Assembly (NCBI RefSeq): GCF_013167455.1
Contig: NZ_CP038328.1
Length of the DNA: 64,000 nt
Reading direction: 5' to 3' (one strand)
Source of the DNA: Escherichia coli O157:H7
GTDB taxonomy: Bacteria > Pseudomonadota > Gammaproteobacteria > Enterobacterales > Enterobacteriaceae
Positions 9,001-12,000 of this stretch are shown here, one piece after another. Position numbers: made by a program. Within the stretch, counting starts at the first letter, position 1; every line of letters begins with the position of its first letter.

Positions 9001-12000
9001 CGTTTGCGAACCTTGCCATGAATGAAAACTTCATGGGGGCGCAGATTTACCAGGAGAACATGCCGTTTGGTACACCAAAACCTGACAGCCAGCTGGGAAG
9101 ACGTTCAACGCCAGAAGCGTACAAGGCGTTTGCATCCTGGCTGAATGCGTTCTCAGGTGGCAGCCAGTACCGTTCAGGCGCGGTGGATATCACACCGGAA
9201 TCGCTGAAATACTGGGTGGACTATATCTCTGGTGGTACAGGTCGCTTCATTTCCAAAACCACGGATGCGGCGGTGAAATCGCTGAATGGTATTGATATAC
9301 CGGAGCAGCAGGTGCCTTTCCTGGGGAAAATTTCGGGAGAGGTGATGCCGTATGCTGACCAGCAGAAGATGTATGACCGGATGACGGAGGTTGTGCAGTA
9401 CCACGCAGAGCTGAAGAGCCTGAGGGGTTCCGAAAGAACGGCATTCATTGACGAGAACAACGGAAAATTGTCGATGAACGGGCTTATGCAGGATACCCGG
9501 AAGAGACTGAAGGATTTGCGTAAACAGCGTGATGCCATTTATGCCGACAGTACTCTCAGTCTGGCGCAACAGTCGGCGATGGTGAAATCGGTTGAGCGGG
9601 ATATGAAGATTGCCGTGGATCGGTTTAACCGCGAGTACAACAAAAAAGTGGGGGTGGAGTAAGAGAAATTGCCCCGTACTGAAGTGCGGGGCATTCTTAA
9701 CATAATGTGTACATAAGTGAGTACTGTTGTGATGGATGTTTTGGTATTTAATGCATTTAAATCAATGGATTGATATTTATGTTCATTATATCCATTTAAC
9801 TAAGAGGACAATGCGGCATGAGTATACCCGCTAATGGACTGCGGGGTAAGTACGCTGCCGCTCGATTGCTTAAACCCTCGCCATTTATGCCGGGTTTTTA
9901 TCATTTTTCTTAATGTTTTCCGCACGTTCTGCTTTTTGGCGTGCTTCTGCTTTGCGCTTGTTGCTCATGTCGTTACGGATCTGTGCATGACTCATTAACG
10001 CGAAGATAAAGGTGCCGCCGCAGATGTTCCCCGCTAAAGTAGGTAGTGCGAAGGGCCAGATGAAATCGCTCCAGTGCAGCGTACCGTTAAACACCAGATA
10101 GAGGATTTCAACAGAACCGACAACGATGTGAGTGGTGTCACCCAGGGCAATAAGCCAGGTCATCAATATAATCACCACAATCTTTGCCGCACCCGCTGCA
10201 GGAAACATCCATACCATAGTGGCGATCAGCCAGCCGGAAATGATCGCGTTGGCAAACATCTCGCTGGGGGTGTTCTTCATCACATCCATGCCGATTTTGA
10301 CAAATGCATCGCGAGTTTCTTCATTGAAGATTGGCATATATTCAAATGCCCACGCCGCAATACCTGTCCCGAGAATATTACCCAGCAGCACGACGCCCCA
10401 TAACCGCATAAGTAAGCCAACGTTGCTCATTGTCGGTTTTTGCATGACGGGTAGTACCGCAGTCACGGTGTTTTCGGTAAATAATTGCTGGCGGGCCATA
10501 ATGACGATAATAAAACCAAAGGTATAACCGAGATTCTCCAGCAAGAAGCTGCCCGGCACACCTTCCAGTTCGACATGAAATATCCCTTTTGCCAGTAATG
10601 AAGCGCCCATCGACAGACCCGCCGCAATGGCTGACCACAGTAGTGCCATTGCGTCGCGTTCCAGCTCTTTTTCACCATCCTGGCGGATATGCTCATGAAT
10701 TGCCATCGCCCGGGAGGGGAGTCGATCTTCATCTATTTCTATTTTTTTGCCACGCTCTTTTTCTTCGCTCTCAACTTCAATTTCGTCGCTGTGTTGATCA
10801 ATTTTGTCGTTGTCCATGGTCTCTTCTCTTGAATTAGCACGTATAGCTAAAGCGTAGCGGCTTTTTTGCTCGCAACTGGCGGGAGTTACTTTGAAAATGT
10901 AGAAAAGGCCGCGTTTGCCTTTTTCTGTTTCTATAGAATCAAGTAGCCTACAGGGCGGCGATTACCAGGCTATGATCAAATCAGCAAATCAGGGCGTCTG
11001 GACATCAGTTGACGTGCTGTTACAATCGCCCACACCTAAACAGGCGGATACGGTATCGTTCCGTCATGGATGGCAAACTGCATAAGCCATAAAAAAACAG
11101 GGAGACATTTATGAAGCTTCGCCTGTCGGCGCTTGCTCTGGGAACTACGCTTCTGGTGGGGTGTGCGAGTTCCGGTACAGATCAGCAAGGGCGTTCTGAC
11201 CCGTTAGAAGGGTTCAACCGCACCATGTACAACTTTAACTTCAATGTATTAGACCCGTATATTGTTCGACCGGTCGCTGTCGCCTGGCGTGATTATGTTC
11301 CGCAACCGGCGCGTAACGGTTTGAGCAATTTTACCGGCAACCTTGAAGAACCTGCGGTGATGGTTAACTACTTCTTGCAGGGCGACCCTTATCAGGGGAT
11401 GGTCCACTTTACCCGCTTTTTCCTGAACACCATTTTGGGGATGGGCGGCTTTATTGATGTTGCAGGGATGGCGAACCCGAAACTGCAACGGACTGAACCT
11501 CACCGCTTCGGTAGTACGCTTGGTCATTATGGCGTGGGTTATGGCCCGTACGTTCAATTACCGTTCTACGGTAGCTTCACGCTGCGTGATGACGGTGGTG
11601 ATATGGCGGATGGTCTTTACCCGGTTCTTTCCTGGCTGACCTGGCCGATGTCTGTGGGTAAATGGACGCTTGAAGGTATCGAAACCCGCGCACAGCTGCT
11701 GGATTCCGACGGTCTGCTGCGTCAGTCGTCCGATCCTTATATTATGGTGCGCGAAGCGTACTTCCAGCGTCATGATTTCATCGCTAATGGCGGCGAACTC
11801 AAACCGCAGGAAAATCCGAACGCGCAAGCGATTCAGGATGATTTAAAAGATATCGATTCTGAATAAGAAACAAATAAAAAAGGTGAGTCGCAAAACTCAC
11901 CTTTTTTGTTGTTATCCCTCAATTACCACAAGTAAAAGGAGATAAACCGACAATGACCCGGACGTAATTATGTAAAAATACTGATGTTCGTCACTGACTA

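Follow-up and report, generated by a model that had tools for sequence, protein, structure and literature searches.

A 64,000-nucleotide (nt) stretch of the Escherichia coli O157:H7 genome (assembly GCF_013167455.1, contig NZ_CP038328.1; the whole stretch is called the window below) contains, close to the chromosomal gene yfdC, the first 24 nt of argW, the gene for the transfer RNA (tRNA) tRNA-Arg(CCU), and AT-rich foreign DNA in the place of the remaining gene. Does such a stump mean that a tRNA gene has been destroyed, or does it mark one end of an element that left the gene whole elsewhere? We conclude that it is almost certainly attR, one of the two host-phage attachment sites of a Stx2a prophage with an integrase of the phi24B, phage 86 and VT2phi_272 type, which in E. 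coli O157:H7 has entered argW site-specifically at the 5' end of the gene. argW has not been truncated, and nothing has been cut off or rearranged. Positions 1-9785 of the window are the right end of this prophage, which is about 60 kb long.

The nature of the stump was established by alignment with annotated intact argW genes. Nucleotides 1-24 of argW are exactly the reverse complement of positions 9786-9809 and read GTCCTCTTAGTTAAATGGATATAA; this sequence has a single match in the window when up to 3 mismatches are allowed, and none in 100 shuffles. The distance from the stump to the yfdC stop codon (9885) is 75 nt, as it is at the unoccupied site of strain OkiPb01687 (L003: tRNA 2950-3024, yfdC from 3100). 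Past nt 24 the agreement with argW falls to 10 of 51 positions, and the DNA at 9693-9785 has a G+C content of 27%, versus 54% in the phage DNA to its left. Among E. coli genomes, homology mostly begins at 9783 or 9786. The sequence-only reading of this locus had proposed a genuine argW 5' end at its native distance from yfdC, an AT-rich replacement of the rest of the gene and a junction between conserved chromosome and foreign DNA, and all three proposals are borne out.

That reading went further and attributed the stump to a non-canonical insertion or deletion, a rearrangement or an engineered join. A true truncation of this kind, by deletion, illegitimate recombination or chromosomal rearrangement, would leave only a dead 5' remnant, the functional gene being lost, and the content of the window could at first sight be taken that way. 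ARAGORN detected no tRNA in the 64 kb, so the intact tRNA that could have overturned the observation did not appear, and Rfam at gathering threshold likewise gave no tRNA anywhere in the window, with only three naRNA4 copies at other positions. Searching argW nt 25-75 as 12-mers across the whole window returned nothing; the displaced 3' part of the gene is therefore not in the window, which also fits with the rest of the gene lying before the window start. The exact breakpoint could be placed, identity ending at the edge of a 25-bp core.

What decides between these possibilities is the reciprocal comparison of attachment sites. The alignment took in attB (the empty site of OkiPb01687, which has intS-argW-yfdC and no insert), attL (the integrase-side junction, from two reference genomes) and attR (the window junction). 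All share an identical 25-bp core, TTATATCCATTTAACTAAGAGGACA, at window positions 9786-9810, and their flanks are exchanged reciprocally: attR equals attB to the right of the core and attL equals attB to its left. We then reconstructed attP by joining the phage arm of the window, the core and the phage arm of attL. The resulting 452-nt sequence is present as a contiguous block, at 452/452 positions (100%), in the free genomes of the Stx2-converting phages 86, phi296 and phi419, and at 99.1% in Lyz12581Vzw. A shared core, exchanged flanks and an attP that is contiguous in free phages are together the prediction of a reciprocal attP x attB exchange, and they therefore effectively exclude a deletion, a rearrangement, a relic of some other element and an artificial join. 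An alignment of four attP sequences shows the core also in phages 86, P27, phi24B and Lyz12581Vzw; in phi24B and Lyz12581Vzw it is 24 bp long, the 25th base being G there and A in the window. The core copy of the window (9786-9810, minus strand) adds one upstream base to argW nt 1-24, which cover the 5' acceptor strand, D-stem and D-loop; in the folded tRNA the D-stem is formed by nt 10-13 and 22-25 and the D-loop by nt 14-21.

The other end of the prophage was studied in two reference genomes, ECP19-598 (100% identical to the window over 9400-10100) and strain 9000 (99.8% over 24 kb, the best match for the first 24 kb of the window). In both, an intact tRNA-Arg(CCT) gene is annotated between the phage integrase (WP_001218308.1) and intS, about 60 kb from attR, and ARAGORN confirms its CCT anticodon in ECP19-598. 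The target gene is thus regenerated in these genomes, with the prophage upstream of it. In the ECP19-598 prophage the gene order is integrase, stx2AB, structural genes and an open reading frame (ORF) of 2806 codons; strain 9000 shows this layout too, and its integrase protein is identical. The stump is accordingly not a truncated pseudogene, the rest of the gene being at attL in the reference genomes and the core in attP. With intact argW at the far prophage end of the closest genomes, a breakpoint that matches the end of attP/attB identity to the base, and the same junction repeated in 208 complete genomes, we consider a true truncation of argW very improbable. The original observation is confirmed and its interpretation partly supported: the 5' fragment on the yfdC side is indeed atypical for elements that target tRNA genes, and the stump itself is a core copy of attR.

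In the reference genomes argW is occupied on both sides, by an intS/P22-like remnant next to its 3' end and by the Stx2a prophage next to its 5' end (L001 20816-22209 in ECP19-598; L012 30190-31583 in strain 9000), and the intS and phage integrase genes diverge from the 75-nt argW. The sequence-only reading had stated that the cargo here differs from the CPS-53 prophage of K-12; this is incomplete, as the reference genomes keep intS and the P22-like remnant downstream of the displaced intact argW. Such multiple use of argW as a hotspot is also what would make one suspect that an older, unrelated element left the stump behind and that the present prophage merely adjoins it. However, the sequence just left of the stump runs into the core and the integrase-proximal arm at 100% in free phages, and the P arm is the attP arm that was used experimentally for phi24B. 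A relic therefore has as little to recommend it as a truncation.

The same junction is well represented in existing records. In GenBank HQ424691 (VT2phi_272) a 25-bp attL overlapping tRNA-Arg and a 25-bp attR 75 nt from yfdC are annotated, and in the LC616031 series a 24-bp "duplication due to insertion" is annotated at both ends. The junction is carried by 208 of 5,426 complete E. coli genomes; in a listed sample of the others, yfdC lies directly beside an intact tRNA-Arg gene. argW is a standard integration locus of Stx2a phages in O157 clade 8 and in other clades, and published "argW left junction" primers for polymerase chain reaction (PCR) match the window at 9617 and 10037-10059, 443 bp apart versus a stated product of 442 bp; for an intact site the published assay gives 527 bp. 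The abrupt change of composition at the junction is the sole argument for an artefact of assembly or an engineered join. Against this stand many independently closed genomes with an identical junction, phage records that annotate it and a published PCR product that fits the window; we regard this explanation as the least probable of all. The attR junction is already known, already annotated and in use as a PCR marker.

The recombination system can be described from the reference genomes. Their integrase has 389 amino acids, is encoded 195 bp from the core and is identical to phi24B Int at 379 of 389 positions (97%). Its Pfam domains are Arm-DNA-bind_3, SAM-like and Phage_integrase, and because arm-binding, SAM-like and catalytic domains are all present, it is a heterobivalent tyrosine recombinase. 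For the Int/Xis system of phi24B, Int-dependent integration and Xis-dependent excision are described from plasmid assays, and Int-dependent recombination between attP and attB was shown not to require IHF; crossover takes place within 24 bp, and the minimal length is 350-427 bp for attP and 62-93 bp for attB (PMC3064807, PMC7581858). Published phi24B primers match our locus exactly: attP600F maps at 9507, attP427F, which belongs to a functional construct, at 9569, attP350F, which belongs to a non-functional one, at 9614, attB125F at 9833-9846, attB324F at 9944-9957 and attB600R at 10071-10090; the partner primers map to the attL side, around intact argW (the intS-argW side). Because of these exact matches, the system of the window can be equated, at the level of primers and sites, with the phi24B-type system that was characterised by experiment.

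In the window, 9810-9829, directly after the 24-bp core, corresponds to the B' arm of the minimal attB of phi24B, which is 20 bp long (PMC7581858). By primer mapping, the 93-bp minimal attB consists of a 49-bp B arm that is argW nt 25-73, the crossover site that is nt 1-24, and a B' arm that is the upstream flank (OkiPb01687, L003 2952-3061; its window half is 9786-9846); the non-functional 62-bp attB retained only argW nt 25-42. The functional phi24B attB is thus essentially the whole argW gene, and the attB described as "unusually long, asymmetric" corresponds to that entire gene. In the phi24B reports (PMC3064807, PMC7581858) neither argW nor a tRNA gene is mentioned.

The course of integration can be proposed as follows. 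The phage attP carries a 24-25 bp copy of argW nt 1-24, within which a P4-like tyrosine integrase with an arm-binding domain would exchange strands. After integration, one core copy would stay by the native argW upstream region and yfdC, as the stump of the window. The other would join argW nt 25-75 at the integrase end, about 60 kb away, and an intact tRNA-Arg(CCU) gene would be rebuilt there. Three points weigh against our interpretation. The window starts just 9.8 kb from the junction, and the integrase, attL and intact argW of the source genome are presumed from the closest complete genomes and deposited phage records; the exact cleavage positions within the core are likewise presumed; and transcription of the displaced argW from a phage-borne promoter is a supposition. 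Weighing these against the reciprocal attachment sites, we retain integration of a Stx2a prophage at argW as almost certain.

On the chromosomal side, the native upstream region of argW (9811-9884, minus strand) is identical to the empty site and is now parted from the intact gene; it is followed by yfdC (9885-10817, minus strand), the first conserved chromosomal gene, which is in the ORF list and annotated in all matched genomes. As integration takes place at the 5' end of argW, the sole tRNA-Arg(CCU) gene is parted from this native upstream region in a lysogen. A -10-like TATACT can be read by eye at 9826->9821, and since a sigma-70 promoter and terminator scan of 9500-10000 gave nothing above threshold, we infer a native argW -10 element from that reading by eye alone. 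A promoter scan on the attL side gave 3 promoter-like sites versus about 1 expected by chance, a weak excess. The candidate of interest there is TTGATT-18-TATTAT in the P' arm, on the minus strand of ECP19-598 (L001) at 22278->22249, about 33 nt upstream of argW; it is a mere match to consensus within AT-rich DNA, and its conservation is uninformative, the P' arm being almost invariant across phages 86, P27, Lyz12581Vzw and phi24B. It might be imagined that displaced argW is transcribed from this candidate phage-borne promoter, and that the orphaned native promoter produces an antisense RNA from the 24-nt stump that reaches the end of the 2806-codon ORF; we find this doubtful. If it were true, with the level of tRNA-Arg(CCU) or of the antisense RNA measurably changed, a prophage in argW would affect the decoding of AGG or the expression of late genes.

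On the phage side, the last prophage gene is the 2806-amino-acid ORF (1242-9662, plus strand), annotated as an LPD38/LPD5 domain protein; it is annotated in ECP19-598, strain 9000, VT2phi_272 and phage 86. Eight nt past its stop codon lies a G+C-rich hairpin (9670-9693) with the arms TGCCCCGTACT and AGTGCGGGGCA and without a clear T-run, which is the inverted repeat I2 of the phage 86 attP (window offset 8107). The hairpin was also considered as a bidirectional terminator, and this was set aside: the terminator scan did not call it, and a T-run is lacking. The P arm of attP, which after integration forms the phage arm of attR, extends over 9569-9785 (plus strand), overlapping the 3' end of the large ORF and including the AT-rich segment 9693-9785. 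Candidate arm-type integrase sites are TAATGTGTACATAAGTGAGTAC at 9703-9724 in the P arm and TAATGCGTACATATTGAGTAC in the P' arm (ECP19-598, L001 22347-22368), and the core is flanked by several direct copies of TGTTCA. The P-arm motif is largely kept in the attP of P27, which is otherwise diverged.

Strain 9000 differs from the window at 51 positions over 24 kb, 49 of them in one patch at 7304-8428 inside the large ORF; the remaining two stand alone, one in the P arm (9736) and one at 20354. ECP19-598 is only 94.9% identical to the window over 1-3889 and heavily diverged at 4488-5080, and nearly identical in the chromosomal part. Because the differences from the closest genomes cluster in this way, the late region and the 2806-codon gene are mosaic. 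No complete genome in the collection matches the first 24 kb of the window at 100%, a result that could raise the suspicion of an altered or engineered window. We rejected this, as 49 of the 51 differences form one mosaic patch and 9400-10100, including position 9736, is 100% identical to ECP19-598.

Both reference prophages also encode tRNA-Arg(UCG), tRNA-Arg(UCU) and a tRNA with a CAU anticodon, all just upstream of stx2. In 933W-type Stx2 phages such tRNA genes are generally found just upstream of stx2, and no link is drawn between them and the argW site. In strain 9000 (L012 1017-4426) the stx2a A-subunit gene is split by ISEc8, an element of the IS66 family, and the early region contains two IS1203 copies.

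Elsewhere in the window, the three naRNA4/CssrE copies (Rfam RF02564, 72-83 bits) lie in tandem at 45405-45657, in the dedD-cvpA intergenic region. A low-G+C patch at 12000-13600 (0.31-0.375 versus about 0.5 around it) contains, between mlaA and fadL, an ORF of 343 amino acids annotated as a hypothetical protein (12261-13292, minus strand); from its composition it looks like an old horizontally acquired gene.

The practical lesson is that a tRNA fragment at the boundary between chromosome and island should first be read as a duplicate of an att site; the complete gene may be located at the element's opposite end, beyond the window under study. For E. coli O157:H7 the junction is a routine epidemiological marker of argW occupancy by Stx2a phages in different clades. 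Its biological interest is minor and consists in the less common sublocation, at the 5' end and D-arm, and in the displacement of a tRNA gene from its promoter.

How does this site compare with known systems? In elements that target tRNA genes, attP usually holds a fragment of the target gene and integration rebuilds that gene; insertion sublocations have been described at the anticodon loop, at the T-loop and at the asymmetric 3' end. Like canonical 3'-end integration, exemplified by the IntS of CPS-53/KplE1, which in K-12 uses the 3' side of argW, and by Islander elements, our system has a tyrosine integrase, a tRNA fragment in attP and a regenerated gene. In contrast to it, the shared core consists of nt 1-24 and no 3' fragment is found within the window: the attP carries a 5' fragment (acceptor strand and D-arm), a less common feature, and consequently the displaced piece is a 5' stump beside the native upstream region, whereas the regenerated gene lies behind phage DNA, without that region. 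A D-loop, upstream sublocation was termed novel for the arg2 islands of Klebsiella (bioRxiv 10.1101/2020.11.02.365908), so that the 5'/D-arm feature is also already known. In those islands, as here, the site spans the 5' acceptor strand, D-stem and D-loop, with the prophage of the window placed upstream of the tRNA gene; they belong to another genus and carry other cargo, their integrases being assigned to clade I.d of that study, and the likeness is one of sublocation. With phi24B (vB_EcoP_24B) the phage of the window has in common the 24-bp core, a nearly invariant P' arm and an Int that is 97% identical, and it differs in the 25th core base (A here, G in phi24B) and in the early region, phi24B being a laboratory derivative. 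The closest relatives are the Stx2a prophages at argW in O157:H7, namely VT2phi_272 (HQ424691), the Stx2_EH0505 series (LC616031 onwards) and the TW14359 type. The window, which holds the attR end alone, departs from them only by mosaic patches in the large ORF and the early region, whereas the 25-bp attL and attR, the 75-nt distance from attR to yfdC, the 2806-amino-acid last gene and the integrase beside an intact tRNA-Arg are the same.
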